A stretch of 64,000 bases of DNA from Eremomyces bilateralis CBS 781.70 (lineage: Eukaryota), in NCBI GenBank assembly GCA_010015585.1, contig ML975157.1. One strand, given 5' to 3'. Shown here one piece after another: positions 12,570 to 51,714 of the stretch. The position numbers and the translations under genes were made by a program. The notes beneath the pieces were generated by a model, which saw nothing but the letters and a program-made list of their open reading frames with translations, was not told the DNA's origin and made no database searches. The number at the start of each line of letters is the position of its first letter. Within the stretch, counting starts at the first letter, position 1.

Positions 12570-15500
12570 CTAGATGGAAACGAAAAAGCTCTTCTCGCCC
12601 TCCTCCGCGTTGACCATACTCCTCTTCACAATCGGATCCGCACAGCTAACCCTGATCCTCTCCACCGTCGCCGGACTCCTCAAACTCAGCACCTCCTCCT
12701 CCCCAAACTGCTTCCTCGCCGCCGTCAACGCCTCCCGAATCGCAAAGAACACCGCGCTCCCCATAAACAGTGGCGGTTCCCCGACCCCCCGACTCCGCTG
12801 GATCGTCCGCAGATTCTCCCATTCGACGTCCTTGAGTAGCGACACATTGAACTCCTGCGGAATGTCGCGGAAGCCCGGGATCTTATACGCGCCGGGTCCC
12901 CGCGTGAAAATCTGCCCGCTCCCCCGATGCCAGAGCATCTCCTCAGTCGTGAACAGCCCCTGCCCCTGCACGAAGGCGCCCTCGATCTGGCCGTAGTCGA
13001 CGGCCGGGTTGATCGAGCGCCCGACGTCCATCTTGATATCCGCGCGTAGGCACGTCCAGTCGCCCGTCAGCGTGTCGATCTCCACCTCCGCCGCCGCCAC
13101 GCCCTGCGTGAAGTAGAAGAACATCTGCCCGGTGTTCGGGCCCCAGACGTAGCCGATATCCGGGGTGCGGTAGAAGCCTTGCGCGGACAGGTTCACGCGG
13201 TCGAAGTACGCGGCGTGCGCGAGCTCCTTCATCGTCGCAGTCGGTCCGAGTTTCTGGCGATACGGCTCCAGGCGCTCGTTCAGTTGCTCGCAGGCGTTCC
13301 AGATGGCATAGCCGTTCAGGTCGGACGAGGCGGACGCGGCGGTCGAGGAAGTGTTGGCGACGGTGTTGGTGGCCGTCTCGGCGACGAAGACGGCGTCTTG
13401 TGGGACTTTGAGCGCCTCCGCTGCCACCATGATCATCTTGGTGTGCAGGCCTTGGCCCATCTCGGTGCCGCCGTGGGCGAGGAGGATGGAACCGTCATGG
13501 TAGATGTGGACGAGCGCGCCGGCTTGATTGAGGAAGAGGGCGGTGAAGGAGATGCCGAACTTGGTGGGGATGAGAGCCAGCCCGCGCTTGTTCCATTTGT
13601 GAGTCTTGTTAAACTCCTCGACGGCTTTTTTGCGGCGCCAGTAGTCCGACTCTTCCTGTACTTGCTGGTACATGAGCGGTACATACCAGTCTTTGAGCTC
13701 CTGGTTGAAGTGTGTGGCATCGCCACGCTTGTACATGTTGATTTCCCGCAGCTTCTCCACTGGCATCTTGAGATGGTCCGCGACCTCGGACATGTAGGAC
13801 TCCGCGATGAACAGGCCCTGAGGTCCGCCGAAGCCGCGGAAGGCGGTGTTTGAGACGGTGTTCGTCTTCGCGACACGGCCTCGCACGTAGACGTTGGGGA
13901 TTTTGTAGACGCCATCACTGTGCGAGAGAGCTCTGTCGACGACAGCACCGCTGAGATCTTGGCTCCAGCCACCATTGGAAAATACGTCGGCATCAAACGC
14001 CTGGAGTTTGCCGTCATTGTTCACGGCGACTTTCCATCGCGCAAGGAACGGATGGCGTTGGCCAGAGGTCACTATGTCTTCATCACGGTTTAGCATGCAT
14101 CGGACCGGTCGGTTGGCCTTCTTCGCAGCAGCAGCACAGATTCCCGCCAGTTGGATCGATCTTGTCTCCTTGCCTCCGAAGCCGCCACCCATTCGTTTGA
14201 TTCTTGTCACGATCTTGTTGGCATCGACGCCAGTGACTTGGGCAACATAGGTTTGACTGTATCGCAGTTAGTACAGGGTAGAATACCTAGCGCTGTTCAC
14301 TTACGTCTCCGCCGGATTCTGGGTGCTACTGAAGACTTCCATCTCCCCATCTTCAGGCTTCGGCACAACAACGCAAGCATTGGTTTCGAGGTAGAAATGC
14401 TCTTGACCACCCATCCGTACAACACCCGTGAAAACATGATCCGCCGCAGCAAACGCCTTATTCACGTCTCCCTTATTAATATATCGGTAATGGTCGAAGT
14501 AGCTTTCCTTCTCAATTGCCTCCTCGATCGTGAAGATGGCAGGAAGGTCTTCATACTCGATCTGGACCGCCCGGGCCGCGTGTTCGGCTCGTTTCGCGCT
14601 GTCTGCGAGGATGACACCGATCGGCTGACCGGCAGTGAAGACCTCGTCGACGGCGAAGAAGACTTCGTCGCAGTTGGGCGCACCCCACCAGTTGGCTTCG
14701 GGGTTCGGCAAATCGTTATGGTCCACCCAGGCGTACACTCCGGGTAAATCAAGAGCATGAGAAGGGTCAACCTTGAGTAATTTGGCATGAGCCTTGGTGG
14801 AGAGCACCAAGCAGCCATAGAGCTCGTTCTTTTGCACTGGGATGTCATCGGTGTATTGTGCTTCGCCTGTACTTTGTTTCATCGCCGCAACATGCGTCCG
14901 CTCCTTTCCGAGATGTGTCTGCTCATAGGCGATACTTGATTTGTGGTCTTTTTGTCCGGTCGATATCATCCGTTCAATTTCTCCAATCGCCTCCTTATCG
15001 ACTTCCGCTTCTTGATCCTTCAGCTCATTCATGACCTCATGATAAAACTTGTAGAAGAAGCTTAGCGCAAGCGTCTTGCGGTAGGTTGCCATGCCTCCAG
15101 GTACACCAAAGCGAAGGTCGAAGTCTTGCTCTAAAGCATTCATGACCCCTTCGAGGGTAGCAGGATCCGTCCATTCCTTGCCAGTGAGGAACTCCTTCGC
15201 ATTCTTCGCAGCGACAGTGGTCGGGGCCATACCACCGTAGACCAAGTCAACGCTGTCAACAACATATGCATCATTGATCGTGACGCGTAGGGCGGCGTTG
15301 ACAATGGCGATATCGTCATCTTTCCTCTTGGCCTGCTTGTATGCGAGTAGGTACTCGCCCTTCTCTTGCGCAGCGGGTATTCTAATGCTCGCAATGACGG
15401 CATCAGGTGCAAGTGCGGTTACACGATAGCCTTTGAAGAATTCGGACATGGGGATTTCAACCGTCTTGTCCAACGACTTCGCGACGAGAATCGCGTTCGA

Positions 15501-16798
15501 TGCGACGAACACTGGGTTGAGGTCAGAGATGGGTGACGCAGTCGCGAGGTTGCCCGCGGGTGTTCCAACATTTCGGATCTGTCTTCCAGCAAAGTACCGC
15601 AGTTGCTTGAGGATGGCAGCAAATGGTTGGGCTCTTGCTTCGCCGTAATGCTTCATCGCCTCCTTTGCAATATCCTCAAGGTCAGTCAGGATGACATTGC
15701 CGCCAATCTCCAAATAGTCTTTTTCGAGTGAGTACTGTCTCAACTCGGGGATATCTCCAACAAACACTGACACTGAATAGTCCATCGCTTTGAACTTCAC
15801 CTCGATCTGTGTCTCAGTGCTTCCACCGATGATCTTTGCGGAGGGATATACGCTCTTGATCTCGAGAAGCTCCTGCAATGTGCCCGGTCGGTACCATCGC
15901 TTCCGCTTGTTGCCAAAGGCCAGGGCTTTGAATTCGTGTTTACGGAGGGCCGGAGGGAAGATGAGTTCGGTTTCTGGGTTGTATTCGACGAAGCCAGGGG
16001 GTGTAAATCTCTTCTTCGGTTCGCTGTCTCCGTTGATGCCATCGGCGCCATCTGCTCTGCAGCAACCCCCTGAGCCTCCTTTCTCCATGCAGCACCCACT
16101 TCCTCCTTTGGCACTAGACTTGCCACAAGCACTGAAGGTTTGAGCGGCGTCAAGGATGGGTCTGTATCCGGTGCATCGGCACAAGTTGCCGTCGAAAGCT
16201 TCTTCCACATCGTGCTCAGTCGGATCAGTGTGGTTTCGAAGCAAAGCATAGAGACTCTATCCGGCTGTTAGTCTTCATAATCCATATCTTCGCACGGGTT
16301 ACGCACCATAACAATGCCAGGGGTACAGAAACCACATTGGCTGCCATTGAACTTTGCAATGCGCTCTTGGGCGGGGTGAGGCCTTTTCACGCTGCCGATG
16401 CCTTCGACGGTGATGACATGCTTGCCATCTACGCTCACCAGCGGAGCTAGGCAAGCATTGACTGAGGCGTGGTATATCTTCTTGGTGGTGGGGTTGTATT
16501 GTGAGATCACCTTCCCTTCCATCAGTAATTGTTTCTTCACCCCCAATTTTCACCACCCACTTACCACCGTGCAAGCCCCGCAGCCCCCCTCAGCACATCC
16601 CAGCTTCGTTCCTGTAAGCCCAATCCCCCTCAGGTACTCCAGCAGGGTAACCTCCGGGTCCGCATCGTCCAGGACCACCTTAGTCCCATTCAGGTAGAAT
16701 CGCAGGGTGTCGTCATACTTGCCCGTCACGGTGGACAAGCTACGTGCTACGTCTTGCTGCACGGCAGGATCTGGTTCTATCACGATGCCCGGGGCCAT
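12570..16798 (-). CDS. hxA: Xanthine dehydrogenase (4 exons)
   Basis: [24 protein letters not shown] and [11 protein letters not shown] (2Fe-2S); FAD domain; [18 protein letters not shown] and GVGEPP (Moco domain). ATG at 16798 (MAPG). Confidence 0.96.
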
Positions 16799-17286: not shown

Positions 17287-19310
17287 ATGCCATGTCGAAT
17301 CTGTCACGATCTCACAGTAGAATCCCCATCCGACGTGCTCCGCCTTGACAATATTTTATTTACAGGGCTGCAAAGTTCCGTCTTGCTTGGCTGTCAGGCC
17401 TGTTTCTTAATCGAAAGTGGTATTAATTCGTTCAAACATGTAGCCAATATCGTGGACCTGGACATCTCGTCTTCGGTTGAGAGGCATCAGGAGGAGAGAC
17501 TCGGAGAACGATTGCTATTGCGTGTCACAACAAGAGATATCAATGGTGATGACACAAACCTGGAATTCTATAGTACAGATGGTATGCTTCGTTAGCAATT
17601 TCGTCTGTTACATCATGTTTCCGTGGGTGTGAGGCTGATGACCCCCAAGTTAGAATAACTCATCGTTGGCCGCTCATCCCCATAGCTTCCCATATCTCTA
17701 CCGACTCCTCTTCACCCGGATGTCTCCATCAAGCTCGGAAGTGGCTGGACCATTGCATTCAGAACCACGGTCTCCAACTGTGTCGATCAGGGACCAGGTC
17801 CAAACTCCCTACCCGGGTCATTAAAGTCGGCGACGCTTCTACCCGTCCTTACTTGCACGAATCAGCTCCTGGGGAAACTGGCTGTTACGCGACTCTTAGT
17901 TACTGCTGGGGAGCGGCAAGAACATTTATCACGACGATTTCCTCGTATTCCCAAAGAAAGACGGGATTTTCCATCGAAGAACTCCCCAAAACATGTCACG
18001 ATGCCGTCCTCGTCGCCCGAGCTTTATCGATTCCTAATCTTTGGATCGACTCCTTATGTATCCTCCAAGATTCCACCCCGGATTGGGAGTTTGAAGCTGC
18101 GAACATGTGTGATATATATGAGAATGCATTGGTCACGTTTGCCGCCGTGGATTCGCCGAGCAGTGATAGTGGGTTGTTCACGTCGCCCGCTTTCAGACGA
18201 ACTGTGGAAATGAATGTGCAGTTGCAAGACCACTCGAATGCTCATGTGTACGTTCGAGAAACAAGATTACGCGGCAGGTTAGGCTTAGGCTTCATACACG
18301 GCTACCCGTCTAATTATGACATTCTCCCGAATGATGGCATACTCCAAACTCGAGGCTGGACTCTGCAGGAGCTAACCCTCTCCACCAGAGTGCTATGGTT
18401 TACATCGAGCGAGCTTGGATGGACTTGTTGGAAAAGCTGTGCATGCGAATGCAACCCCCTGGAACGCGAATCCTTCATGGAACCGACGGTATGTCTTTCC
18501 TCTTCAGCAGAACATGACTCGTCTGAATGGATGAGAACCTGGCGAGAAATCATCCACCAGTTCACTAAAAGGGATCTGTCCTATCAAAAAGACCGTCTTC
18601 CGGCATTGTCTGGTTTAGCTAAGGCGTTCAACCATCATGTAGGAGGTGAATACCTTGCTGGCATGTGGGAAAGCAATCTTACCGCCCACCTACTTTGGTC
18701 CAGTTCTTGGGAAGTCAACCACGGACCTTCATCGCAGGCCTCGACGTCCATGACTCCATACAAGTTAGGAGATCACTATGCTCCATCTTGGTCATGGGCA
18801 TCCGTTTTCGGTGCGGTCATGTACTTAGGAGTTGACCTACATCGTAACTTTCGGTGGTTCTGGAGGGTGGTGGATGCGAAATTCCATCCCAGTGGAACCA
18901 ATCTATACGGGCCTGGCAGCGGTTGGCTTGTCATCGAAGGGAACATAATTCCACTTCGTGTCTCCGGGGGCTCATTCTTTTACTCAAGCGGAGGCTACGA
19001 CGATGAATCTCTCCAATGCCCAATCCACCAATCTTCAGTTCTTCTTGATCCAAGGGTCGACTATGTTGATGACTGGAGTCACATGGATGGCAAGAGGATA
19101 TTCTTCGTTTTCGCTGGATCGATGGCCAAGAAATCGGAATCAGGAGCTGAGATCCATAAGACATTTTGCGGTCTGGTCATCGAGGATCTGGACGGAGATA
19201 AATTCAGACGGCTTGGATACTTGGAATCCCCTTTTGGAGAAGCTGGCATCAAGGGTGGCTGGGACAGTTGGGAAACACTCACGAAACGAAAGAGGATCTG
19301 CTTAGTTTGA
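17287..19310 (+). CDS. HET-domain (heterokaryon incompatibility) protein (exons 17287-17581, 17650-19310)
   Basis: LPTRVI, YATLSYCWG, LWIDSLCILQD, MCDIY, LQTRGWTLQE, DRLPALSGLA, APSWSWAS. Confidence 0.92.
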
Positions 19311-28282: not shown

Positions 28283-28763
28283 TGGACTAGACGTGCGGCA
28301 TTTGCAAGGTGTTACGAGTTCTGTACAACAATTCCATTGGGATGGCTCCCTTTAACATATCCTGTACTGAGCGTAGTTTGTCTCGAAATGAAGCAGCCAT
28401 AAACTGAGAGACAACTGTCGATAGTCTAACATGGCGAATATCTAGACTCAAACCCATTTTTCCGTTCACTTCGTAGAAATCGTGACGTAGGCTCATTCAA
28501 CCTAAGCTTCCTCCTCCTTGTATTCTTCGTCTTCTTCTCCTTCCATGCGGGCCTCCACGAAGCTTGTAGCTAACCGTTAGACACTCCTCCGAGGTTCGTA
28601 TTGTGACCTGCGCATTGTCAGGCGATTCCGACAGACCACCAGGCGCACAGGTCGAAGTTCTTATGCGCTCTCGCTCCCTTAGGAGTGATCTGGCCCGAAA
28701 ACACGCCGCTTCTTAATTCCTAAAGAGGATAATCTGGCTCATAACCGCGCCGCATCCCTTCCC

Positions 28764-29148
28764 CTAATGATTTCTAAAATTCTTCTTCTGATAGAACAGA
28801 TCCGTTCGCGAGCTCCCCAGATTGATGATCTTCGGGCACCCGTCCCGATCCTTCTCCAGACGCGTGCACTCGAAGCAGTAGAAGGCGTCGGAGATACCCT
28901 CACCGCCGCACACAACGCACTTGTTCTGGTAGTTGCCGAAGGAGCACTCGTCGCAGATGCGGACGAGAGTGGTGGGGCGGACGTAGCTGTCGCAGACGGG
29001 GCATTTACCGTCGCATTTATCGCAGAGGCGGCCGATGGCGATTCCGGGCTGCTTGCGGCACATGACGAGGTCGCTAGGAGTTTCGTGTTAATGATCTGCT
29101 GGATATATCGGAGGATGAGAGAGCAGCTTACGGATGATGGCGAGACAT
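28764..29148 (-). CDS. RDS3: SF3b subunit Rds3/PHF5A/Ini1 (intron 29074-29131)
   Basis: [39 protein letters not shown]...[16 protein letters not shown]. Confidence 0.97.
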
Positions 29149-29485
29149 GGTGAAGCGGAGAAGGATGCCCTGACGTCCGCGCGCGGGAGCTTTCAAGTGC
29201 GAAAAAGATGTTTCGTAACACTATGTCCTTCTTCAAAGGATATAGAGGAATACAAGAATTGCCAAGTGTATGTTCGTGAAGAGACAAGCGAAGTAGAATA
29301 GAATGTAGAAAAAGTGCCACCGCACGTGCTGGGGACTCAGCCCTGCAGGAGTCCGTCGTGGCAACTTTCGAGCTTCAACCCAAACCCTGATATTTCATTA
29401 TTTCCGTACCTAAACATTCTCGAATTTTCCAAACGCCTGCAGCAGCCCAATCGCTACATCTCGATTCTCGGGCCAGCTAGTCAGT

Positions 29486-30660
29486 ATGGCAGACGACATG
29501 CCGTAAGTCCCCATCACTCGGCGATTGCTCAATCCTCCTGAAACCGCCTCCGCATTCTAACCATCCTCCCAGCCTACTGGCCTCTGCCGTCATTGTCCCC
29601 GACGCCCCCAACCACCTCGACACACCGAAGTCCGAACCTCCATGTTCTCCAACCCTCAAACGACGCCAATCATCCATCTCCGATACCTCATCGAAGCGTC
29701 CACGACTGTCCGTTGACGGCGACGCCGGTCCACGTCGCAATGGGCGGGACGGATCCGAAGCCGCGAACGGGCTGCCGACGCCAACAGATGAACCCGACGA
29801 CAACCGGCTAAATCGACGAAGATCCGGGTTAGAGGCAGAGAAAGGGCGCGGGAAACGGCTGTTTGGAGCCTTGCTAGGGACATTGTCGCAAAACTCAGCA
29901 TCGGCGGCGCAACGACGACGGGCGGATATCGACAAGAAGCAGCAAGCCAAGCTTCGGCAGCAAGCTGCGGATTTCGACCAGAGGCGGAAAGAACGGTTGG
30001 GGGACATACTGGAGGCGCGCAAGCGGGAGCAGGGGAAGTTCGAAGAGCAATCGGTAAGCTCTTGGGCACGCTGGTCTATCATGATTGGGTGGGACATGCA
30101 GAAGAGGCGCTAATTTCTACGTTGAAGATGAGGGTACGGCATTCGAATATGCTTGCGATGGCACACTTTTTGCAGACAAAGACGGAACCGAGGCTGGTAG
30201 GTCATTCAACTTCCACGGCTGTCACAGTATCTGACTAGAACAGTATTACAAGCCATGGGAACTGAGCGCGGAGGAGGAGGACATAATCGCGTCGCAAGTT
30301 GCCGAAGTGGAAGTCACCATTGACCGGGAGCTGGAGGAGTTTGAGGCCCGTCGACCTGCTGAAGATGAACCACAGAACGGGTCACACCAGGATGGCGTTC
30401 CCGGAACAAAGGCAGAGGCCGATTTAGAAACCGAAGAGCCAGGTCAGCAGAATGGTCACCCTTTAACTGGCGCAGACCACGATAGTGCCGAGAAGCCAAA
30501 CGACGAGGGTGCTGAAGCGGACTCAGGGGAGCACGTGGAGTTCGACACGCAGCAGCCGCAGCAAGTTGAGCTGGAGGCTGTCGTTGAGACAGAGACGAAA
30601 CACGAGCATGACGACGATGAGGAGATAATGGAAGGTGAAGAAGATACCGTACTATACTAA
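29486..30660 (+). CDS. Pinin/SDK/memA-domain protein (4 exons)
   Basis: RGKRLFGALLGTLSQ, MRVRHSNMLAMAHFLQTKTEPRL/YYKPWEL, EGEEDTVLY tail. Confidence 0.82.
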
Positions 30661-31334
30661 TAGATACCCCAGCATCGGCCGGCTTTATATCGCAGGGGGA
30701 TGGTCCATTTGGAGATTCTTGTAGCATACCTAGTTCTAGCAGCTTAGGGGCGGGCTAATGGTGGACGCTACATTGAGCCGGCGAACCCGAAAGGCCAAAA
30801 GCAATATCAATACCTCACTCGCGTTACAGAGTTTACAACCACACGCTTTTATCAAAGTACTTTAGATTCTGATAGCGATACCTATGACCTTGGGGTCTGG
30901 AACAGTCGGATTCCCCCGGACACGGAGTCAACCAGACCCAGCTAACCCCACATAGCCCGAGGTACCGGTAGGATCACGATGTTCACAGTGCATATCTACG
31001 TAGCTCTCTTCGAGGCAGTTGGAGAGCTTCGTATTTCGTCCGTGCAAGAGAATCAGGCCAAACGATGCGGTTAACTGCTCGTCCGAATCACAAGGGAAAG
31101 TGTCAAGATATTTGTAATCTCCCTCGACATCTCCAATGCCCCGCAATACTTAAAAGGTAACCGACCTCGGTTGCAGCTATTGCGGTGATCACCAAGATTT
31201 AGAAGACCACCGAATCGCTGTTGTAGAAAGCTAAGTTCTTAGTGCCCGATTTATCAATTAATCGGAACAAGTCGAGTTTGAATCGACTGCGTGACGTGCA
31301 TCGAAAGCCAGCAAGTTCATTGAAGTTCCACATC

Positions 31335-32838
31335 ATGAGCGTGAAGCCGATTGATCCGTTCTCGGACCCGCGCATTACCCATGAATATGCGCAGCTGAAC
31401 GGGCAGAGGTATCACTATCTGTATGGAGTGCCAAAGTCGGGGAAATGGCATAGGACTATTTTTCTGGTATGTGGAATGGCCCATTGTGCAATAACCTCAG
31501 GCTCCTGTCCGTGGAAAAGACGATAATATATTGATTGGCGAACCAGATCCATGGCTTCCCGGATATTTCTATGGGATGGCGATATCAGATTCCGGTCCTG
31601 CTTGAATTGGGGCTGCGCGTTGTTGCGCCAGGTTAGACCAACCTCAGTAACGTGCTCCCGCGACACCTAGACTAATACCAGTGATTCAGATATGATGGGC
31701 TACGGTGGAACCGATGCTCCCCAGGTTCCTCCCAATCTAGATAAATATACGTACAAACGAGCCGCAGATGATTTGGCCGAATTGGCGCGGCAATTGAGAG
31801 AAACCCAGATCATTCTTGGAGGTCATGATTGGTATGTCTTCTGCCTGTGATGAACCCCTGGAGAAAACAACAGGACTAACCGACCATCAGGGGTGGAATG
31901 GTTAGTTTAGCCTTTCGCAGGTATCAAGAGAGGCGTAAGTAATCGAGATTGACAAATTGTCCTTCAGATCGTGTACCGCTTTGCGAACTGGTATCCAAAC
32001 CTCATCTCGCATCTTTTCTCGGTTTGTACCCCCTACCAGCGTCCCAACAAGACGTTCTGGTCGACGGAAGAGTTCGTGAAGGGACCCCTCCCGCAGTTTG
32101 GCTACCAGCTCCATCTCGCCTCTGGAGAGATCGAAAAGAACATCAATACGCCCGAGGGCATCCGCCAATTCTTGAATGGCATGTACGGTGCTCGTGGGCC
32201 GAACCGCGAGTCGACGTTTGACCCTGTCACCGGAGTTTCGTTCGAAAACCTTCCCAAGGTTGGGAAGACGAAGCTGCTCACGGACCGAGTGAGTTATAGA
32301 TCGATGATGAAAGCATGGTGGGCTAATGTGATATCAGGAAATGGACTACTACACGCAAGAGTACTCCAAACATGGGCTCAATGGTCCTGTGAGCTGGTAT
32401 AGGTGAGTTGGAGATAGCTCATCATCAGGAAGAAAATGATATCTGACACATGCATTGAAAGGACGCGGGAACCAAACTGGAGAGACGAATTGTCGTAAGT
32501 TTGCGGCGACTCGGATGAAGAAGCTAAGGTAACTCTGAATTCGCTGACATCTCGGAAGCATGGAAAAAGCTACACTGGACATGCCTATTCTATTCATTAG
32601 TGCGACACAGTAAGTGGCTCATGGAACAACCATCGTACTGCAGGCTGCTGAAAACCGCGTTAGGGATGCCGTCCTCACACCGGCCATGGCGAAGAACATG
32701 TCCAGGAGTTTAACGAACCTCACTATGCGGGAGGTCAAGGCCCAGCACTGGGCGTTGTGGCAGAAGGCGGATGAATGCAATGCTCATATCAAGCAATGGA
32801 TCCAGGAGGTCGTGCTCGGGAAGCAAAGTAGGCTCTAG
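31335..32838 (+). CDS. Alpha/beta-fold epoxide hydrolase, about 9 exons, C-terminal SRL (PTS1)
   Basis: HGFPD, APDMMGYGGT, GGHDWGG nucleophile motif, HWALWQ; ends ...GKQSRL*. Confidence 0.88.
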
Positions 32839-33424
32839 GATAGGAGCCCATCTCGGGCCGGGGATATCGTAGATACTCTTGTCTCCCCGTGCAAATGCAG
32901 CGTGCCAATACAGATATCTCCGTGATCTGCATTTGTCATAATATCCGTCCAAATCCGTGTCGGAAGCTTCCCATTGCACCAATGGTTGAACCCGGACCAC
33001 TTGGATTGAGAGCTAAACTTCCCAACAAAGCTGTTGAAATTGTTGAGGTCGATGTTGGAAGGATGCCGGTCGGCCTGATTTGTATAACCCACGATGAGCA
33101 TAATTCTGCTCCAACCTCTTTCATTCGTGTGGCAGTTATGGTTCCCGGCTTCCGCCGGTGGTGCACAGATTGCCATAGACACGCGCACGTCCGGTGGACC
33201 ACGAGAAACGAAGCGGTGACGGTGAGCTTTTGTGGTCGGGGGTAATCATCTCCATCTCCGTGACGTCAATAGAGAGCGAGATGATCGGCTTGAGTAGAGT
33301 TCTAACGGTCTTAATCTGCGGTAGGATGCGGTGGACTGTGGACCCCTTCGACTTTCGGGGGCTCGTAAGAGCGAATGGCATGTGCCAATGCAGGATACTC
33401 ACCAAGCTAGGGACAGACCTTGAC

Positions 33425-33462
33425 AGCTTCAGAGCTTCAGAGCTTCAGAGCTTCAGAGCTTC
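33425..33462. repeat. (AGCTTCAG)n tandem repeat, 4.75 copies
   Basis: Read directly from the sequence. Confidence 0.9.
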
Positions 33463-36314
33463 CAGTCAAACAGGGAGGCCTGCGGTCCGACGACCAGGTA
33501 CCGCTACTTTATTCCTGTGCCCTGTGGTACCAAGGAAACGGACGGTGTGTTGGCTTTCCACGTGGTCGTATCGAATGACCGTGCTGTACTGCGATGTCGG
33601 GTTAATAGGGGGCTAGGAGCGAGGCTCGAGAATATAGTAGAATAATGGTACCTCATGGTAGAAGTCCGACAGCTGATTGGAGCTCAAACATTCTGTAGTA
33701 GATCATGATTCACCGTTGGTTCGCTCTGAAGGATAATGTTCGTGAAGAATGAAGCTTAGCGAAGCTGGGGCATGTACCTTAGGCGGCATCATAGATTTCC
33801 TCAGGGGTTAGAAAACATGCTCAAAAAGGATCTGGGAGCGGTCTGGGAGCACTCGAATACATTCCGTAGCGGTCAATCTTTCGGAGAGGATCGTGGTTTA
33901 GCGCTTGGCAGTCCCTTAGCTTAAGAAAGGCAGCGATTGACGCATGCCGATGCAAATGCATGCGAGACTTGCGGAAGAATGGTCGCTAGGTCTTTTTTTA
34001 TGTCGTGGTGCCGCGAAGCTAAGTCGACATCATGATCGTATCTGACGCCAGGCTGTCCGACAGGTACTCTCCTCTGTTGAGGATGGAATGACAAACGGAG
34101 CCCCGTTGCCCTCATCGCTGCGGAATGTCGATAGATGAAGTGAAGAAGTATAACTTGATATTGACGATCTTCCTCTAGAGCAGTATCAAACAGTGGGACA
34201 GCTCCCATGCCTCGGCGGCATACCTTAATTCATGTTGCTGAGATTCGAGATCAAACGGGAAGCACTGGACGGAATGACGATGGTGCAATATCAGCTTTTT
34301 AGCTTGCCATTCCAACGCAGGCAAGGCTCGAAACAGTTCGAATTCGCATCACTCGGAGCGGTCTTCCGTTTCGCGTACCTGGCAACAGGGTTATTGAGGT
34401 TATGCAACTTCTGGAAGCTTTGTTGCAAGGGATGCCCTGATACGGAATATTGGAGTCCCCCTGTCCAGATTGGTCCGGGTAATTTCGAAACCACATGTGG
34501 AGCCGTTCTCTTTGGCAGCCTCGTTTGACATTATTGCCAGCAGTTCGGAGTCGCCGTTCATTGGGCGGAAAATCATCCATTATACTCCCGAGTCCTGAGC
34601 ATCTAGTTTCGCAATCCGTAGTGAGCGCCATGCTCTGGGATAGAAAGTGGATTCTGTGTCAGAGTCCACCGTTTGTTCCCCAGCGATCCCTCTCCGCCAT
34701 CTCACCGAGCCTTATCGACAAGGTCATTGATGGGTCACGATGTATTACTGCGCTATCTCCCAATCGCAGAGGAAAGATCTGACGTTTCCAATGCTAAGGG
34801 TCCAATTGCGGATTCATGGCGGCATCCTGTACTCCAATCCTGCAGGTTTACACGGGCAGATGGGAATCACGGCCCGGCTCTCAGCCACTCGATGTTCTTA
34901 TAGCCGCAGTAGGCACGGTAGTAATTAGGTACTTTGTGCGCCAGATTCACATGAAATCGAACCGTGGACTAAATCTGATTCGGGTCAACCTGTAGCTCGA
35001 GGCAAGTGGTTCTCTGTACAGAGTACACAGCAGCCAGTAGTAAGACCTTGTGGATGTTCTTGTGTAGCGGGTTTCGACATGGGGGGTTTGCTACCGTGGC
35101 TTCTGCATGTCTCCCGATAACCTGGTCCATCAACTGGGGTTTTCTGATTTGATGATAAGGTCGAAGCGTTGACTGTCGACAACTGACTTTGCTGAGTGTT
35201 GTCTCTGCCAAATCAGACTTCGATGTTTCTAATTAGGGAGCTACTCGCCTCTGGTTTGAGCCTTGGAGGGCCTCGGCAATCGGTTTCTCATCAGTTACTT
35301 CAGCACCCAAGACAAAGCCAAATGGTCTCGAACATGACCATTTTAAGTCCCTGTCGTGAGGCCGAAGGAACCCATCTTAGCATTCCCTAGCGCATAATGC
35401 GTTTCACTTATATGTCGGTTTCTAGACGTGTATCGATGGGAACATTACTGTAGACGCAACGAATCGAAACACCGCCGATAGCAGGACCGAGTTCCCGGCG
35501 GGTGTTACCGGTTGAACCGTCGAACGGCCGAAGCCTCGAAGACGCTAAAAGGCGGTCGGTTTCCACTAATTGAGTGGGCTTTGATCGTCATCGTAGTGAC
35601 ACGGACACTCTAAGAGTTCCACCATCGAAATATTGGTGGCATTCATGGAAGATCCGTTATTTTTCTCTTGTATGGTGGAGGAACTATCAGGCCAATAGAG
35701 TTAGCCTTCGCTTCGTTTATGCTGCTCCCGAAAGCGCTGTCCAATGCAACACTACCTTATCGCTGTTTCACAAAGAACACTGATAGACAAGTGCAAGTGA
35801 GGGCCGAAACCACCGAGAAGTCCCTGTAGTTAGCCACCTTCTGCCGGGTCTGCCCTCGTCGGATGTACAATGCATGCTACTACCAAAACAACAAGGTCAG
35901 CTCAGATCCTCGCCAACGTGGAAAGCTTGTCGATTTCATTCCCAGAGCAGCGGACAGAGACCAGCATCGGGCCAATACTGAGCCCGCTTACATCCTGTAG
36001 CGTTCCAGCCTGCCAGGGAGCTTGGATGGACCATGTAGATTTGCGCGAACGCTGGTCCTCGTCTGCAATCCCGCTATCCTCCCGAAGTCCCGAAGGCTCA
36101 TCGAAGCAAGGAAAGGGGAATGAGAAATGGAGTTCAGAATGAAGGCTCGCACGGTGTCATTGCGTTGAGCCCAACAGGAATTTATATCATCTGCTCCCAC
36201 GCCCTCCGTGGGGTTTGGACGTCGTAAGTCGAATTCAACCTCTTGTATTCCGCATTACCTCTTTTCTTTTTGCGGCCCGCTCCTTCTAGTCGCTTAGGCG
36301 TGGTTCGATTCAGA

Positions 36315-37695
36315 ATGGCTCCCACAGCTCTCGCTGACCTGTATCCAATCCCAGCCCGGCATTACAACAAAAATCAAGTCCAAGCGTCGGTGCTAAGTGG
36401 TCCAAAACAATTGTCGCTGGTATGTATTACCCCATCGTGAACATTCGTCTTCCAATCCCATGCATCGATCTCGTGGGGGTTTGTCATGTGTACCTGCGTC
36501 AACCTTGCTCATTCTCCACGTTAGGAAACACGAACTATATCCGATCCCGCACCCCACGAACTCCAGGTCCAGATCAAGGCTACTGGCCTCTGTGGAAGTG
36601 ATTGCTCCTATTATAGCAAGTTCCGCAACGGAGACCTGCAGGCCCATGAACCCTTGACTCTTGGCCATGAATCGAGTGGTGTCGTCGTTTCCATCGGGAG
36701 CGCCGTCTCGGGCTTCCAGATCGGTGACAGAGTAGCACTTGAAGTGGGAGTGCCGTGCGACAACTGTCGGTCATGTCAGCGTGGTCGATATAATCTCTGC
36801 CCATCGATGCGATTTCGAAGCAGTGCTAAGTCATTTCCACACTATCAAGGAACGCTCCAGGACCGGATAAATCACCCGGCGAAATGGTGTCACCGGTACG
36901 GTATCCCCTTGAATATTGCAATGCAAAGCTAATCCCGTCAGTGTCCCTCCACACGTCTCCGACGAAGCTGCCGCTCTGCTAGAACCTCTGTCTGTTGCGA
37001 TCCATGCAACAAGAAGAGCCACCATCGAACCTGGAGATACGATTGTGGTTTTCGGAGCGGGCACGATCGGACTCCTCGTCTCAGCAATGGCTAAGCTAGG
37101 TGGCGCCGATGTAGTCATTGCAGATATCGACAGTGGTCGTGTTGCATACGCGCTCATGAAGGGGTTCGCGTCGAAAGGCGTCGTCGTGAATCAGTACAGC
37201 GATGCATGCCATCTATCAGAGCAGCTCCAAGCGGCCAAACACGTTTCAGACGAGGTCTTGCGAATTGCGTCATCGGGCGAAATGGACTTTGAGGGGGCTG
37301 ATGTGACTTTTGATTGTACCGGAAAGGAGATATGCATGCAAGCCGGGCTACATGTAAGCGCGACGATACCGACATGTCAAAGACCAAGCTAACGACTTCA
37401 GACGACTCGTCCAGGAGGACAGCTTGTGATGGTTGGTATGGGTACACCCATCCAAACGCTCCCAATGTCCGCTGCGCACCTCAAGGAGGTGGATATCATT
37501 GGGATTTTCCGATATGCCAACACCTATCCCACCGGTATCAAGCTACTCTCAAGCGGCCAAATCCCTTGTCTTGACGACTTGGTGACTCATCGGTTCGAAG
37601 GGCTGAATACCGTGAAAGAGGCATTTGAGCTGGCTGGGAGAACGTCGGACGACCAAGGTCGACTGGTTCTGAAGGTTGTCGTAAAGACGGTTTAA
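36315..37695 (+). CDS. Zinc-dependent polyol (sorbitol/xylitol-type) dehydrogenase (4 exons)
   Basis: GLCGSD, LGHESSG, CDNCRSCQRGRYNLC, VFGAGTIG, GIFRYANTYP. Confidence 0.92.
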
Positions 37696-38074
37696 TGACA
37701 GAAGTTGCGGGGATTGAGCTTCAATCAACAAAGACTAGATCAAGGAATAGACTCGAACAAATAGATGGAACTGGGTTTACGGAATAAGGGAGCATTATGC
37801 TGAAGGGAAAGAAATTGGACATTTCGGTTTACAAAAAAGGAAACAGACTGGTGCGCTACATGGAGTGAGGTGGAACATGACAGGAATGGCATGACCATAC
37901 GATTTTTGGGTCATGGATAAATCCACGGTTCCTACATCAAAGGGGAGCACTATTAGTCTTTAAATCACCTAAATCCACCATCGTCTGGCAACGAGTGTGC
38001 AGAAGTTGAAGTTGCTGTGCTGTGAAATTGGTGTGAATTTGGTGGGGGCTGAGAGAGCTAATAGAACAATTTGA

Positions 38075-38103
38075 TAACTAACTTAGTTAACTTAAGTTAA
38101 CTA
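38075..38103. repeat. Left TA-punctuated array (putative stacked excision footprints; last TA is the target-site duplication)
   Basis: Parses as TA-AC-TA-ACT-TA-GT-TA-ACT-TA-AGT-TA-AC-TA directly abutting the TIR. Confidence 0.75.
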
Positions 38104-39949
38104 ACGTAATCCACCAGCGAGTCGCCCAAACCACCGAGTCGCCCACTTCATCTCCGTAACAGCGATCATCACGATTTTTTCGCAATGTCTCAACAACAGA
38201 GCCCTCAATTACCTTCAAATGAAGCTAGAATGAACCTAGCCATCCAGACTATCGAACAAGACCAAGTTCAATCAATTCGAGAAGCTGCAAAAGCTTACAA
38301 CGTCCCGTGGAGTACCTTACGTGACCGCCGCAACGGAATGACTGCACGAAGCGATTGTGTCCCGAATTCGAAAAAGCTCTCAAATATGGAAGAAAGGGTG
38401 ATTATCGACTACTGCCTCGATGTCGACGCGCGCGGATTTCAGCTCAATTACGATATGTTGCGAGATATAGCCAACAAGCTACTCAGCGATCGCGGTCAGG
38501 CTCACGTTGGTATCAATTGGCCGTCAAGATTCGTACAACGCGTTCCAGAGCTCAAAACACGTGTTAATCGAAAGTACGACTATAAAAGAGCCCTGAACGA
38601 AGATCCAGAGATTATTGGCGCGTGGTTTCGCCTCGTACGCAACGTGAAGGCAAAATACGGTATCCTGGATGAAGATACATACAACTTTGATGAAGTTGGC
38701 TTTCAAATGGGCGTAATCGGGACGCGCATGGTCATCACGGGTACCGAACGACGTCAGACTCCAAAAACCTTGCAGCCAGGCAATACAGAATGGGTGACAT
38801 CGATCATTGCTGCCAGCGCGCAAGGTTGGATTGTCCCACCCTTCATCATCTTCAAAAGCGCTCGACATTACAATACCTGGTACGAGGCGATTGCGGATAG
38901 GCCTGATTGGGTTCTATCAGTTAGCGAGAAGGGCTGGACGTCCCTTGAGCATGGATTTGAGTGGTTAAAGCATTTTAATCGCTTCACAGAAGACCGTACG
39001 ACTGGCGCCTATCGGCTTCTGATTATGGATGGCCATAACAGCCATGACACTATCCAATTCCAGGATTTCTGCAAGGACCAGAAGATTATTACTCTCTGCA
39101 TGCCTTCGCATTCATCTCATTTGCTACAACCCCTCGACGTTGGCTGTTTTGGGCCATTAAAGCGCGCGTATAGCAAGGAGATTGAGGACTTTATCCGGTG
39201 CCGCATCAACCACATCACGAAAGAGGACTTTTTACCTGCTTTCAAGACCGCCTTCGAAAAAGCAATTGCTACGGAGAATATCCAGGGCGCCTTCAAAGGC
39301 GCAGGATTAGTGCCTTTCGATCCAGAAGCTGTTATTTCAAAGCTTGATGTCCGATTACAGACCCCGACGCCATTACCAGAGATCACTCAATGGGAGTCGC
39401 AAACACCACGCAACGTCGCTGAAATAAGGTCCCAAACAGAGTACATACGACAGCGCCTTCAAAGAGATCAAAATACCTCCCCAACACCGCTTTTAGAAAG
39501 CTTTTCAAGCCTTGAAAAGGGTGTTCAAATGGTCGCGCACGGAGCTTCAATCATGGAGGTCGAGATAGGAAAGCTTCGGAAGGCAAACGAGACGCTATCA
39601 AAGCGCAAACAACGCAAAAAAAAGGTGCTTAAGGGCGCTAATACGCGCTCAATTACTGATGGGCTTGAATTAGCTGTACAACGTCGGGATCAAGATATAA
39701 TCAGTGAAAATGGTACTTCTAATGACGTTCCCGCAAGGCGCCAGCGACGTTGCGGACGCTGTCGCGAGCCAGGACATCGCGTTGAGACCTGTACAATGCC
39801 TCAATTAGCTATACCAGAAAACGTAGATCCTAGCCTACTTCCTAATTAATAAATTGCTTCAGTAGTTGTTGAGATATTCAGGTTACGGTAGTGGGCCACG
39901 GTTGAGGTGGGCGACTCGGTGGTTTGGGCGACTCGCTGGTGGATTACGT
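38104..39949 (+). mobile_element. Fot1/pogo-family (Tc1/mariner superfamily) DNA transposon, full length, 1846 bp
   Basis: TIR of about 47 bp (ACGTAATCCACCAGCGAGTCGCCCAAACCACCGAGTCGCCCAC, 43 bp perfect) with internal GAGTCGCCCA direct repeat; TA on both sides; intact transposase ORF. Confidence 0.97.
38185..39849 (+). CDS. Fot1/pogo transposase (HTH_psq, CENP-B HTH, DDD domain, C-terminal zinc knuckle)
   Basis: SIREAAKAYNVPWSTLRDR, YNFDEVGF, LLIMDGHNSH, LQPLDVGCFGPLK, CGRCREPGHRVETC. Confidence 0.96.
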   Translation: MSQQQSPQLPSNEARMNLAIQTIEQDQVQSIREAAKAYNVPWSTLRDRRNGMTARSDCVPNSKKLSNMEERVIIDYCLDVDARGFQLNYDMLRDIANKLLSDRGQAHVGINWPSRFVQRVPELKTRVNRKYDYKRALNEDPEIIGAWFRLVRNVKAKYGILDEDTYNFDEVGFQMGVIGTRMVITGTERRQTPKTLQPGNTEWVTSIIAASAQGWIVPPFIIFKSARHYNTWYEAIADRPDWVLSVSEKGWTSLEHGFEWLKHFNRFTEDRTTGAYRLLIMDGHNSHDTIQFQDFCKDQKIITLCMPSHSSHLLQPLDVGCFGPLKRAYSKEIEDFIRCRINHITKEDFLPAFKTAFEKAIATENIQGAFKGAGLVPFDPEAVISKLDVRLQTPTPLPEITQWESQTPRNVAEIRSQTEYIRQRLQRDQNTSPTPLLESFSSLEKGVQMVAHGASIMEVEIGKLRKANETLSKRKQRKKKVLKGANTRSITDGLELAVQRRDQDIISENGTSNDVPARRQRRCGRCREPGHRVETCTMPQLAIPENVDPSLLPN

Positions 39950-39981
39950 TAGTTAACTTAACTAAGTTAGTTAGTTAACTA
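39950..39981. repeat. Right TA-punctuated array (putative stacked excision footprints)
   Basis: Parses as TA-GT-TA-ACT-TA-AC-TA-AGT-TA-GT-TA-GT-TA-AC-TA. Confidence 0.75.
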
Positions 39982-40151
39982 ATTTGATATTAGCCTTATA
40001 TCCATATGCCTGAGGCCACAATATCTGGTTCAACCTCCAACTGAACGCAAGCTCTCTGACAGTCTCTCCAGGCAAGCAGTAATAAACAAAAGATGGGCAT
40101 GAACCATTCATTCTATTAGAAGGCCACGACTCCGGCCGACGTACACCCATC

Positions 40152-41464
40152 ATGCAGACCGAATCCCCGAATCCTCTAATACACAATGCTCCAGCATCGG
40201 ATACCAGTCCCCGCGTCCAGCTCCATCCTCTTGTCCTCCTCACGATTTCCGACACCATCACCCGGCACAATCTCCGCGACAGCGAGGAGCTAAGCGTGGG
40301 AATCATCCTTGGCCAGCAGAATGGCCGTGAAGTCACCATGGAAGCTGCGTTTGAGTGTAAGACGGTTACCACAGAGGGCACGGTCTTGTTCGACGAGGAG
40401 TATCTCAGGGTGCGGCTCGATCACTGTAAGTGACCGGATACTCTGGACAGATAGGAACCATGACTAATTCAACATGAAGTGAGAGAAGTCTATCCGTCTC
40501 CGCAGCTCGATTTGGTGGGCTGGTTCGGCCTCGGGCTCCCATCTGGACCCGCGTTGTATCACTCCGTGATCCAGGATCAATTCCAGCACCGACTGGGACA
40601 CGACAATGCGTTACTGCTCCTCTTTCACCCTACCGCGGTCGGCGAACCCGAATTGGCTATGGGGAAGCTCCCAGTTTCGGTATATGAAGGCGTCGTTATC
40701 AACGAACCGAACGCCATGGATGTCGACGGCGGTGATCGAGCGAAGGGCCTGAGATTTAGGGGGTTGGAGTGTGCGATCGAGACGAGCGAGGCGGAAATGA
40801 TCGCGATCGACTTCGTAGCTAAGGGTGGAGGGAATGCCACGGCTGTGGAACGGCCCAACGAGCCGGCGAGTGAGTCGAGCGGGAAAGGCAAGGGGAAAGC
40901 GCTCTCCGTAGACGACTTGGTAAACGGAGCAGAACAGGCACCGGAAGTCCAGCTTTCTCCCGCGGAAGAAGATCGTATGGCTGGTCTTGGCTCCGAACTT
41001 GAGATTCCCGAGGCTAACACAGCACAGTCATCTCGTCCCTTACCGCAAAGCTCAACGCGAGCAAGATGCTCCACCAACGCATTTCTCTCCTCGGATCGTA
41101 CGTCTCGTCTCTACCACCCTCCTACCTCACCGATCCCTCGCTTCCGATCCAAACCTCCTCCGACCCCGAAACCGACCAGACGCTCCCAAACCATCAAATC
41201 CTCCGCTCCATCTCGGGCCTCATCCGCCGCCTGCCCATCCTCCCGCCACCATCCACCGTGGAATTCCAGCGCGAAGTATCCGAGCAGCGCACAGACGTGA
41301 CGCTACTCGACCTGCTCGCGAAGGTGACCGAGTCGATCAATGAGAGCCGCGAAATGGGCAAGAAAGTGGCGGCGGTGGAAATTGGTCGGTCGTTTGGACG
41401 GAAGGGGTCGGGGATGCAGGGTCTACAGGAACTGCCGTCCACGGCATTCGACAGTCCGACGTGA
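40152..41464 (+). CDS. CSN6: COP9 signalosome subunit 6 (3 exons)
   Basis: MPN domain VQLHPLVLLTISDTITRH...GIILGQQNGREVTME, LDLVGWF, ETSEAEMIAIDFVAKGGGNA. Confidence 0.9.
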
Positions 41465-49320: not shown

Positions 49321-51315
49321 TCATCCAGTGCATCGCTCTTCAGGTGGTATATAATCCAATTCCAGCGCGTCAAACACCCTCTTCTCCGCATCCAGCCATC
49401 CCAAGCCATCCGGAACTCCTTCTGGTCCCTCTGCTCGGATTACGGCGCCGTTCTCTCGGCTCCGTATGCCACTGGAGTCAAACTTCCAGTGCTTCTTGCT
49501 CTTGGCGTATCGCCGGAGGTCGCGTTCAAAGGTCGTGTCGGCCGACCATCCCAGAACCGCGCATCCGACCGTCCGCCAAGGCGAGATGATGATATCGACT
49601 CGACGGTGGGGGTTTTTTATAACTTTCTCGTCCGCCGATTCCACGACTCTTTCGTCTCTTTCGCCTTCCTCACGTGCAGCATGCGGATCCTGCCAAACGA
49701 CCAACGCTTTGTCAAGGGTATCAAATCCTATACCAGTTCCCAGTGGGCCGCTGGTGCCACGGTTTCCTCGAAATGGGAGCGTCGATTGGCCTCTGGAGGT
49801 ATTATGTTCGCTTAGAACCAACGTATGTGTCACGTAACCGGACTCCTCGAGACTGGCGAGCACGTCTGTAACAAGGCCAGCGGTAACGTCGAGCTTTCGG
49901 TGGGTCAGAATGATATCCACGTCCATGACGTCCGGTTTCCGCTTGCGATACCCCCCGACCACGATGGCCTCCACTCCCTCATCCCTCACTCTCTTCGCAT
50001 GCTCCAAAACCACGGCCGTGATCCGCTCCACCTCTTCATACGGAATGGGAATCAAGAACTCGTCATAGAACTTCACTCCGATCTGCTGCGCTCTAGTCAA
50101 CGTGCTCCATCCGTACTCCACTACATCATCCAAGTCTCTCCAGCCTCTCGCATAGAACTGCCTCGCTGTCGTTGAGCCCACCCCCCAAATGTCATAGAAG
50201 AGCCTCACTACCTTCATCTCTTCGTCTTTCTCGAACTCTTGCACCGCCTGCAAGCTCCCAGTATCATGCCACTCCTGCCACAAGGCGGAGATTTTCCCAT
50301 CGCACCCAGGCAACCGCGCAACCTCCGCCGTCCGCCGCATGACATGCGGATAGGCGCACATGGACGCAATCGCCGTGCTATAGGCGCGCACGCCGATCTC
50401 GTCGGATGTGAGGATCCGTGCGAGCTTGATCCGCTTGAGGAGGGCGATGAACTCGGTGTTCGGCGGGCTGCGTGGATGGCGCCGCTGGCAGGCGTAGATG
50501 AGCTTCTCCCTGACCCAGTCAGGGGCGGGAGGAAGGGCTGCTTCGTCATCGGAGCCAGTGGTGGATTGAGTGAGTGAGAGAGGGGGGGCAGGACGCTTTT
50601 GTGATATAGTAGGTTTGGTTCGGGAGTGAAAATGTCCGCCACGATAGGGGCATTGATGCTCTCTCCCAGAAGCGGTTGGGGCGTCATCCCGAGCACGTAT
50701 TAGTATCGATTGCGTCGCATGCTTTGGTGCGGGTTTTAAAGAAGATGATCCAGCAACAATATCGTGCTCAGCGGCCCGTCCAATGCGTCCTGCCAATATC
50801 TGGTAAGGCTCAAACGCTTCAAGTCGCTGGGCAGCGAGAGAATCTTTCAACCAATCGACTCTCAGCACTTGGGCATAGTCGTCCTGATTGGATTCAACAC
50901 CTTCGTCCACCTCGCTCTGGTCCACAGAGAGCTGAGATAGCGTCGCCTGAGAATCTAACTTCGTCCGCTTTTTGGGCGGCTCATCGTGCGCTATTTCTGC
51001 TGACTCGATATAAACTCCACGGGATCGAAGCTCCAGTTCTACTCGGCGTTTGGATCGAATTTTGGTGAGGAATATTCTCGTCTCAGAAGGATCGTAGGTC
51101 AGCGGCGCGTTGCATTCGAGCAATTTGTCTTCCAGATCATGTAATTCCAGGGTCGTGGTATGGGTATGAAGAACGTGGATAGACCGTAATTCGCTCAAAT
51201 CAAGCTCCGCGTGTTTCCATTCCGCATCACCGCCTAGTATTGATTCGCTTTCTATTCTTAGTAGTGACGACGGTTCTGCTATAGTGGATGGTGTTTCTGG
51301 AATCGGTGACGACAT
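49321..51315 (-). CDS. Family X DNA polymerase (Pol4/pol mu/TdT-like) with BRCT-like N-terminus
   Basis: YACQR, LPGCDGKI HhH, IWGVG, GGYR...DVD, RRVDII, GWS...FERDLRRYA, YIPPEERCTG. Confidence 0.93.
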   Translation of the reverse strand: MSSPIPETPSTIAEPSSLLRIESESILGGDAEWKHAELDLSELRSIHVLHTHTTTLELHDLEDKLLECNAPLTYDPSETRIFLTKIRSKRRVELELRSRGVYIESAEIAHDEPPKKRTKLDSQATLSQLSVDQSEVDEGVESNQDDYAQVLRVDWLKDSLAAQRLEAFEPYQILAGRIGRAAEHDIVAGSSSLKPAPKHATQSILIRARDDAPTASGREHQCPYRGGHFHSRTKPTISQKRPAPPLSLTQSTTGSDDEAALPPAPDWVREKLIYACQRRHPRSPPNTEFIALLKRIKLARILTSDEIGVRAYSTAIASMCAYPHVMRRTAEVARLPGCDGKISALWQEWHDTGSLQAVQEFEKDEEMKVVRLFYDIWGVGSTTARQFYARGWRDLDDVVEYGWSTLTRAQQIGVKFYDEFLIPIPYEEVERITAVVLEHAKRVRDEGVEAIVVGGYRKRKPDVMDVDIILTHRKLDVTAGLVTDVLASLEESGYVTHTLVLSEHNTSRGQSTLPFRGNRGTSGPLGTGIGFDTLDKALVVWQDPHAAREEGERDERVVESADEKVIKNPHRRVDIIISPWRTVGCAVLGWSADTTFERDLRRYAKSKKHWKFDSSGIRSRENGAVIRAEGPEGVPDGLGWLDAEKRVFDALELDYIPPEERCTG

Positions 51316-51714
51316 GGTCTGACCTGCTGTGGCCAGCTTTGTTGTAGTGAAACGACTAATCGCATATTACCGAAAGGGTTTCAGTTGATAAGTGTGGGAG
51401 AGGATATCCAAAGTCCGTCAGATCATTGTCATTTATGAACACTAAGATATCGGTAGGAAGAAACACATGCTGCGTTAATCGACAAAGAGACGTGGCCAAC
51501 ACGTGGAAAGGTTGATGATGTCTTCGCAGATATACGTCACATAAATCTTGGCATACTAGTACATGAGAGTTCGGCCAAAGTACAAGGAGATTCATCTCTC
51601 CGTACATTTAAGTAAATATATGTACATTTCTCGTGTAGTTGCATTGAAAATCCGGGCGTGACTTCCAAGTCTACCTGCCAGTACATGACCCTCATGTCTT
51701 TCGGTAAGTGACAT

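Follow-up and report, generated by a model that had tools for sequence, protein, structure and literature searches.

Arrays of footprint-like TA units flank a predicted Fot1/pogo transposon in Eremomyces bilateralis and recur in part at other loci

We analyzed a 64,000-nt stretch of contig ML975157.1 from the fungus Eremomyces bilateralis CBS 781.70 (assembly GCA_010015585.1), referred to below as the window. In it, a predicted DNA transposon of the Fot1/pogo type is flanked on both sides by an array of very short units made of TA and a spacer of two or three bases, and the whole block of array, element and array lies between two copies of a 9-nt direct repeat (Table 1). The pattern of the element's terminal inverted repeats (TIRs) matches at its two ends only, making the element single copy in these 64 kb, and scans of viral_contigs and genome_contigs with the same pattern returned 0 matches.

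Table 1. Coordinates of the features at the transposon locus (window positions)
Feature	Position	Strand	Description
Left copy of 9-nt direct repeat	38068-38076		AATTTGATA; ends in the TA that opens the left array
Left array	38075-38103		TA AC TA ACT TA GT TA ACT TA AGT TA AC TA; 7 TA, 6 spacers
Predicted Fot1/pogo-type DNA transposon	38104-39949	+	1846 bp, ACGT at both ends
Left TIR	38104-38150	+	arm of about 47 nt within the element; pair of direct subrepeats of 16-17 nt at 38113-38145 (period 17, 1.9 copies)
Transposase open reading frame (ORF)	38185-39849	+	554 aa, uninterrupted; N-terminal helix-turn-helix (HTH) domains, DDE_1, C-terminal CCHC knuckle
Right TIR	39903-39949	-	direct subrepeats at 39908-39940
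Right array	39950-39981		TA GT TA ACT TA AC TA AGT TA GT TA GT TA AC TA; 8 TA, 7 spacers
Right copy of 9-nt direct repeat	39981-39989		AATTTGATA; direct repeat bracketing the array-element-array block

The product of the transposase ORF matched DDE_1 (E = 3.9e-28, 98.7 bits, cut-off 22) and HTH_psq (E = 4e-5, 23.7 bits, cut-off 20.4), and with HTH_Tnp_Tc5 it scored 20.7 bits, just under the cut-off of 22.2. The motifs NFDE, DGH and LQPLD are intact. Aligned over its full length with 19 relatives (20 sequences in all), the protein shares the invariant residues D169 and D318 and the at least 90% conserved D282, which together we take to be the catalytic triad; the CCHC residues C523, C526, H531 and C536 are invariant in the same alignment. 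Its closest protein match was 79% identical and its relatives as proteins were 67–79% identical, the named matches being fungal and in some cases called transposase (Verticillium, Pyrenophora, Stemphylium). An inverted repeat, I1, joins the two ends with 59-nt arms that are 98% complementary, 47 nt of each lying inside the ACGT ends and 12 nt outside in the arrays; the left TIR also figures in inverted repeats I4 and I5. TA stands directly outside both ACGT ends. An initial annotation, made from the letters of the DNA alone, had described an intact Fot1/pogo element with ACGT ends. The DDE_1 and HTH matches, the TIRs, the flanking TA and the presence of several copies (see below) bear this out, and the element is predicted to be an intact Fot1/pogo transposon. 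At no more than 79% identity to known proteins, it would represent a member of this family that is not yet on record.

Both arrays parse completely into TA and the spacers AC, GT, ACT and AGT, with 0 bases unassigned, exactly as the initial annotation had parsed them. Across the two arrays the use of the spacers is balanced (AC 4, GT 4, ACT 3, AGT 2), and each of the 13 can be built from the ACGT termini of the element, a property that had also been pointed out and that holds without exception. Only 1 of the 11 pairs of neighboring units is identical. Since the four unit types are mixed and identical neighbors are so few, the arrays carry no signature of slippage. The 64 kb contain no other array of at least two units. 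We simulated the window 200 times with a first-order Markov model and obtained a mean of 0.055 arrays of at least two units (the largest having 2) and 0 of at least three, and single units occur in the window at the level expected by chance (14 observed, 11.7 expected). A chance origin of the arrays is excluded. Additionally, contigs built independently from two runs, X1 and X2, span both array/flank junctions with 0 differences, which means that the arrays are no artefact of the assembly; X1 and X2 are two runs of one sample, which is possibly the sample behind the window's assembly.

The tract has further structural properties. With the element removed, the occupied TA sits inside a 22-nt perfect palindrome, and the DNA fold energy of the tract is then -14.0 kcal/mol, compared with -2.6 ± 1.5 kcal/mol for 300 shuffles. 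In a mirror comparison, the two arrays have a longest common subsequence of 5 units. GC content drops to 0.46 around the element, the window-wide value being 0.53. As a separate observation, a tandem repeat of TGTGAAATTGG (2.2 copies, 38021–38044) lies 30 nt upstream of the left array.

The outer limits of the arrays are marked by the 9-nt repeat. The block 38077–39980 lies exactly between the two AATTTGATA copies, and an identical 7-mer at this spacing occurs at 7 of 62,080 window positions. The initial annotation had given the string that remains when all units are collapsed to one TA. The collapsed string is as given; what had been overlooked is that it is a tandem 8-nt duplication.

To define the termini of such elements, we drew on relatives found in metagenomes by a scan with the transposase alignment, which yielded 79 loci with products 44–54% identical. 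An ACGT...ACGT pair (spacing 1700–2300 nt; complementary at 22 or more of the 30 terminal bases) was found in 48 of the 79; many of the other 31 loci are cut by contig ends. Every readable flank of these 48 relatives begins with TA (87/87), and the flanks are unique right after it, with one unit or more in only three (both sides of locus L078 and the left side of L021). In 247,674 nt of metagenomic loci there was one array of 2 units. From the TA starts and the near-absence of units it follows that the ancestral elements ended in ACGT adjoining TA, and since the relatives' flanks lack arrays, long arrays are not a general or ancestral part of the ends. Insertion at TA, which had been taken from what is established for the superfamily, is thus borne out both at this locus and among the relatives.

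Related elements land at each other's ends. A second TA-ACGT end lies within 60 nt in 12 of the 87 flanks, where 2.3 would be expected from the rest of the same loci. At L021 (about 360–2260) the order is element-TA-GT-TA-element-TA-element, three elements arranged head to tail, and at L065 (about 400–2270) it is element-TA-element, again head to tail and with a single common TA. Among the 87 flanks read there was no general mirror symmetry beyond the TA, and a preference of the relatives for an AC-TA-GT target was not evident from base counts. One relative, 48% identical (L078, 121–1998), carries one unit per side in mirror image (AGTAACTA / element / TAGTTACT), and the site it entered would have been a 14-nt palindrome.

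Other copies in the same genome were studied through Logan contigs of four runs aligned to positions 37000–41000; the contig counts given below are those among 14 listed ends out of 58. The summed contig depth of the element in X1 is 16–31 times that of the flank, with about 28 variable positions, indicating a repeated sequence, although this ratio is not a copy number. The right array is likewise deep (summed contig depth 798 vs 165 in the flank, X1). The contig of the unique left flank ends at 38117 (38116 in X2) and that of the unique right flank begins at 39944, break points that fit 31-letter words common to other loci from 38088 on, up to about 39973. Some contigs of X1 and X2 skip 152 nt within 39647–39800 and have 10–19 other differences, representing a diverged copy with an internal deletion in the end of the transposase gene. 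Run X3, which bears another organism label, covers the element from 38117 to 39932 at low depth with 0–4 differences per piece, and the sample may hold the same or a very close fungus. The unique flanks are uncovered in X3 and no contigs of X4 (same species label) aligned, neither of which is evidence of absence.

On the left, at least four X1 contigs (at least three in X2) begin to match at 38088 and are unlike one another before it. They carry TA ACT TA AGT TA AC TA, that is, the inner 16 nt with three left units, followed by the TIR. At least two X1 contigs begin to match only at 38100. On the right, at least two X1 contigs cease to match at 39973, after the first five units; at least one ceases at 39977, after six units, and continues as CATAGAAG in both X1 and X3; and at least one X2 contig matches beyond 39982, through at least 7 right units, and then runs on in array-like letters. 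The outer units (left AC, ACT and GT, and the last AC on the right) were not shared among the matches listed. The recurrence of the inner units shows that the unit order is not private to this locus. The initial annotation had itself named identical flanks on every copy as something that would refute its reading, and this is borne out in part, the inner units being common to other contigs. Because the limits of the matches vary and some ends share only 4 nt, a fixed extension of the TIR does not describe the tract either.

Arrays without an element, which had been proposed as something to look for, are indicated at two kinds of place. At least two contigs begin to match at 39950 and are preceded by non-element sequence; they may be the same two that end at 39973, and would then be element-less arrays. 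At the locus tagged CATAGAAG, the matching pieces and consensus tails give an array without the element in both X1 and X3, with CGT where the element would sit. Between two matching pieces there are 4 letters in X1 and 23 in X3, so that this locus, if it is one locus, seems to differ in array length between the two samples. A 219-nt contig of X3 consists nearly entirely of units of the same grammar, with one CGT at the point where the element's last six bases match. The left sides of the element-less arrays are unlike the left array of this locus. Additionally, one single-copy contig holds a right array that is altered by two small insertions, and several single-copy contigs join one array piece to another.

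We estimated roughly how often such sharing would arise if every locus had stacked its units independently. For the left side, 0.5–1.0 ends with the three given units would be expected among 34–62, and the probability of at least four is 0.002–0.017. For the right side, five given units would be expected 0.03–0.06 times; allowing two mismatches in 24 nt raises this to 0.23–0.42, with a probability of at least four of 0.0001–0.001. On these estimates, a purely local tally of the inner units appears unlikely. The sharing far exceeds independent stacking, and the arrays, or at least their inner parts, are therefore inherited or copied between loci.

How, then, might the units have arisen? After a 2-nt staggered cut of an ACGT-ended element, one donor end would carry AC and the other the complement of GT. 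Joining these ends across a 2-nt mismatched overlap, resolved either way, would give AC or GT, and joining them across a 1-nt overlap with a C-C mismatch, again resolved either way, would give ACT or AGT. The four spacers would thus be exactly the end-joining products expected for the 2-nt overhangs AC and GT. Such a stagger was reportedly described for Tc1 and Tc3 by Plasterk in 1991 and van Luenen in 1994. Scars could accumulate beside resident copies if the TA at the element's end were hit again, as the clustering of related elements at one another's ends suggests, and the scar tract, being AT-rich and palindromic, might itself be hit again as well. Indirect hints that the array may be a preferred landing pad, as the initial annotation had it, come from the 22-nt palindrome and from this clustering. 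A preference for palindromic AT repeats is reported for a Tc1/mariner element (PMC7913693).

Tracts built in this way could then have reached other loci by either of two routes. Two copies within one array might move together from their outer ends, carrying the scars that lie between them, and this would transport a variable inner part of the tract. Alternatively, a second copy flanked by arrays might be the template for repair of an excision gap, the scars providing short stretches of homology, and repair out of register would homogenize and lengthen the tracts. In this superfamily, restoration of a copy through homologous repair is established (PMC2874221). Taking these results together, we think it quite possible, if somewhat short of probable, that the units began as excision footprints beside resident copies and that the arrays were then copied between loci. 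As part of this best explanation, the element has apparently been active recently and inserts at TA.

Several points weigh against this reading. The 2-nt stagger is borrowed from Tc1 and Tc3. All data on other copies come from one contig comparison that gave consensus tails and not the contigs; the threshold for a match was 88% likeness, a piece matched in X3 differs at 2 of 34 nt, and the unit orders at other loci are partly inferred. The chance figures given above are rough, depending as they do on the number of arrays in the genome, and the resemblance of the two arrays as mirror images reaches only weak significance (P about 0.01–0.05). No tandem or composite copy of the element's own family was seen, nor any repair tract, which leaves the copying route purely conjectural. 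Finally, the 9-nt bracket is not explained by any step that duplicates TA. Possible sources of it are an older visit by an element that duplicates 8–9 nt, followed by its excision; a templated insertion during one repair; or capture of the whole block at a staggered break. The bracket as a product of the pogo transposase was considered and rejected, as this family duplicates 2 bp.

Other explanations each account for part of the data. The initial annotation had proposed that all 13 spacers were laid down at this very site by about 13 insertions and excisions, each scar adding a TA target. This is consistent with the perfect grammar, with the count of 13 spacers and 15 TA (n+2), with the missing slippage signature, with the unique flanks of the relatives and with the indications of arrays without an element elsewhere, and with the outer units being shared by no listed match. 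However, the inner three left units and the first five to seven right units recur in contigs with unrelated flanks, which would be rare for independent stacks, and the 9-nt bracket is not made by TA events. The claim of about 13 visits is not supported, and we consider a complete local history of the site unlikely.

Alternatively, the tract might be a pre-existing dispersed, TA-rich palindromic repeat, perhaps a tiny mobile element that duplicates 8–9 nt, with the transposon preferring its central TA and the likeness to footprints being secondary. In its favor, the block is bracketed exactly by the 9-nt direct repeat, other loci hold element-less copies of the same 24–34 nt, and the occupied TA is in the perfect palindrome. 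The differing left sides of the element-less arrays do not fit, however, as they indicate that there is no fixed repeat unit, and the units match exactly the footprints predicted for an ACGT-ended element. A repeat of this kind is quite unlikely.

We also give little credence to the possibility that the TA-rich tract is a true part of the TIR in this subfamily, its length varying by small indels. I1 reaches 12 nt past ACGT, the arrays are loosely mirror-image, the right array is as deep as described above and the inner units are common to several copies, all of which would be expected of extended ends. Yet a fixed end would give one match limit, and the limits observed are several (38088, 38100, 39973, 39977 and beyond 39982). 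The 48 relatives end at ACGT, followed by TA and unique flanks, arrays without an element are indicated, and every unit can be built from the four terminal bases, which is not required of an arbitrary extension of the TIR.

Growth of a microsatellite by replication slippage in an AT-rich target, an alternative already named in the initial annotation, is close to refuted: Tandem Repeats Finder reports period 10 in the left array and period 17 in the right, but random arrays of the same grammar (400 simulations each) score equally in 48% and 25% of cases, respectively, so that we gave this periodicity no weight, and the mixed units and the lack of any such array elsewhere in the 64 kb also argue against it.

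If the units are indeed footprints that were copied between loci, a further step can be imagined. The scar tracts could be self-propagating cassettes, being preferred targets that move as composites or serve as homology arms in gap repair and are thereby seeded at new loci; we put this forward as a doubtful but conceivable extension. Were it true, an array would be a heritable record of the history of an element lineage and not of one site, and a cut-and-paste element would build its own safe harbors, each new tract being a landing pad.

As a rule, excision footprints occur singly and dispersed. At this locus, long arrays of them seem to have formed, which are linked to an element that is apparently active and which differ between samples. 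Should such arrays be hit again and copied along with the element, a cut-and-paste transposon would shape its own target landscape, and past transposition in a wild fungus could be read from them. Such arrays would also provide a natural test bed, in which the spectrum of units reports on the joining of mismatched 2-nt overhangs. For annotation, the locus is a warning that flanks resembling the history of a site can travel between loci. Our literature search, outside of which most older Fot1 papers lie, did not find footprints described as stacked in arrays, such arrays next to a resident copy, or their recurrence at more than one locus; it likewise returned no Fot1 footprint sequences and nothing on transposons of Eremomyces bilateralis, and PMC5033516 employs the word footprint with a different meaning.

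The neighboring ORFs are ordinary fungal genes, and the product of a glycosidase ORF is 100% identical to an E. bilateralis CBS 781.70 protein, with the next matches at 53–62%, which assigns the window to this Dothideomycete. About 10 kb upstream of the element (28300–38000) are devoid of a stop-free frame of at least 250 aa. An ORF at 49324–51366 (minus strand) has the fingers, palm and thumb of a family X DNA polymerase (lambda/beta type), the kind that fills gaps in end joining; its distance to the arrays is 10 kb, and we imply no connection. Further away are a HET-domain ORF (17574–19307, plus strand) and two adjacent ORFs (12573–16256, minus strand) that together resemble a xanthine dehydrogenase divided by an intron or a frame change. 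A protein search with a 1131-aa ORF gave no match at E <= 1e-50.

Several known systems resemble the locus in part. In foldback-type elements, short units repeated a variable number of times make up the terminal repeats, and 9-bp duplications are produced; the ends described here are similarly repetitive, variable in length and roughly mirror-image, with a 9-nt direct repeat around the block. In contrast to foldback elements, a pogo-type DDE_1 transposase is encoded here, the relatives end at ACGT next to TA, and the units are not one tandem sequence. Composite transposition, or macro-transposition, from the outer ends of two copies is known from bacterial composite transposons and from Ac/Ds macrotransposons. 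It would move the DNA between the copies and so give shared inner units with variable outer limits, and the tandem relatives with one common TA in metagenomes (L021 and L065) have a suitable arrangement, whereas no tandem pair of this family was seen here.

Among its closer kin, the element agrees with Fot1/Pot2-type pogo elements in its transposase with DDE_1 and an N-terminal HTH, its length of about 1.85 kb, its TIRs of about 47 nt with direct subrepeats and the TA on both sides; TIR subrepeats are likewise noted for Pot2, Fot1 and similar elements in PMC2836289. It differs in its long scar-like arrays, which are found in none of the 48 metagenomic relatives. The units themselves are most like the footprints of Tc1/mariner elements (Tc1, Sleeping Beauty, ZB), which also consist of TA, a few terminal bases and TA. 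The spacers of 2–3 nt fit the range of 2–4 bp that is given for Tc1/mariner excision footprints in PMC7913693, and the units fit the general excision scheme (PMC2874221). The known footprints, however, are single scars at an emptied site, whereas 6 and 7 are stacked here beside a resident element, parts of these stacks recur, and another locus appears to stack more units than this one.

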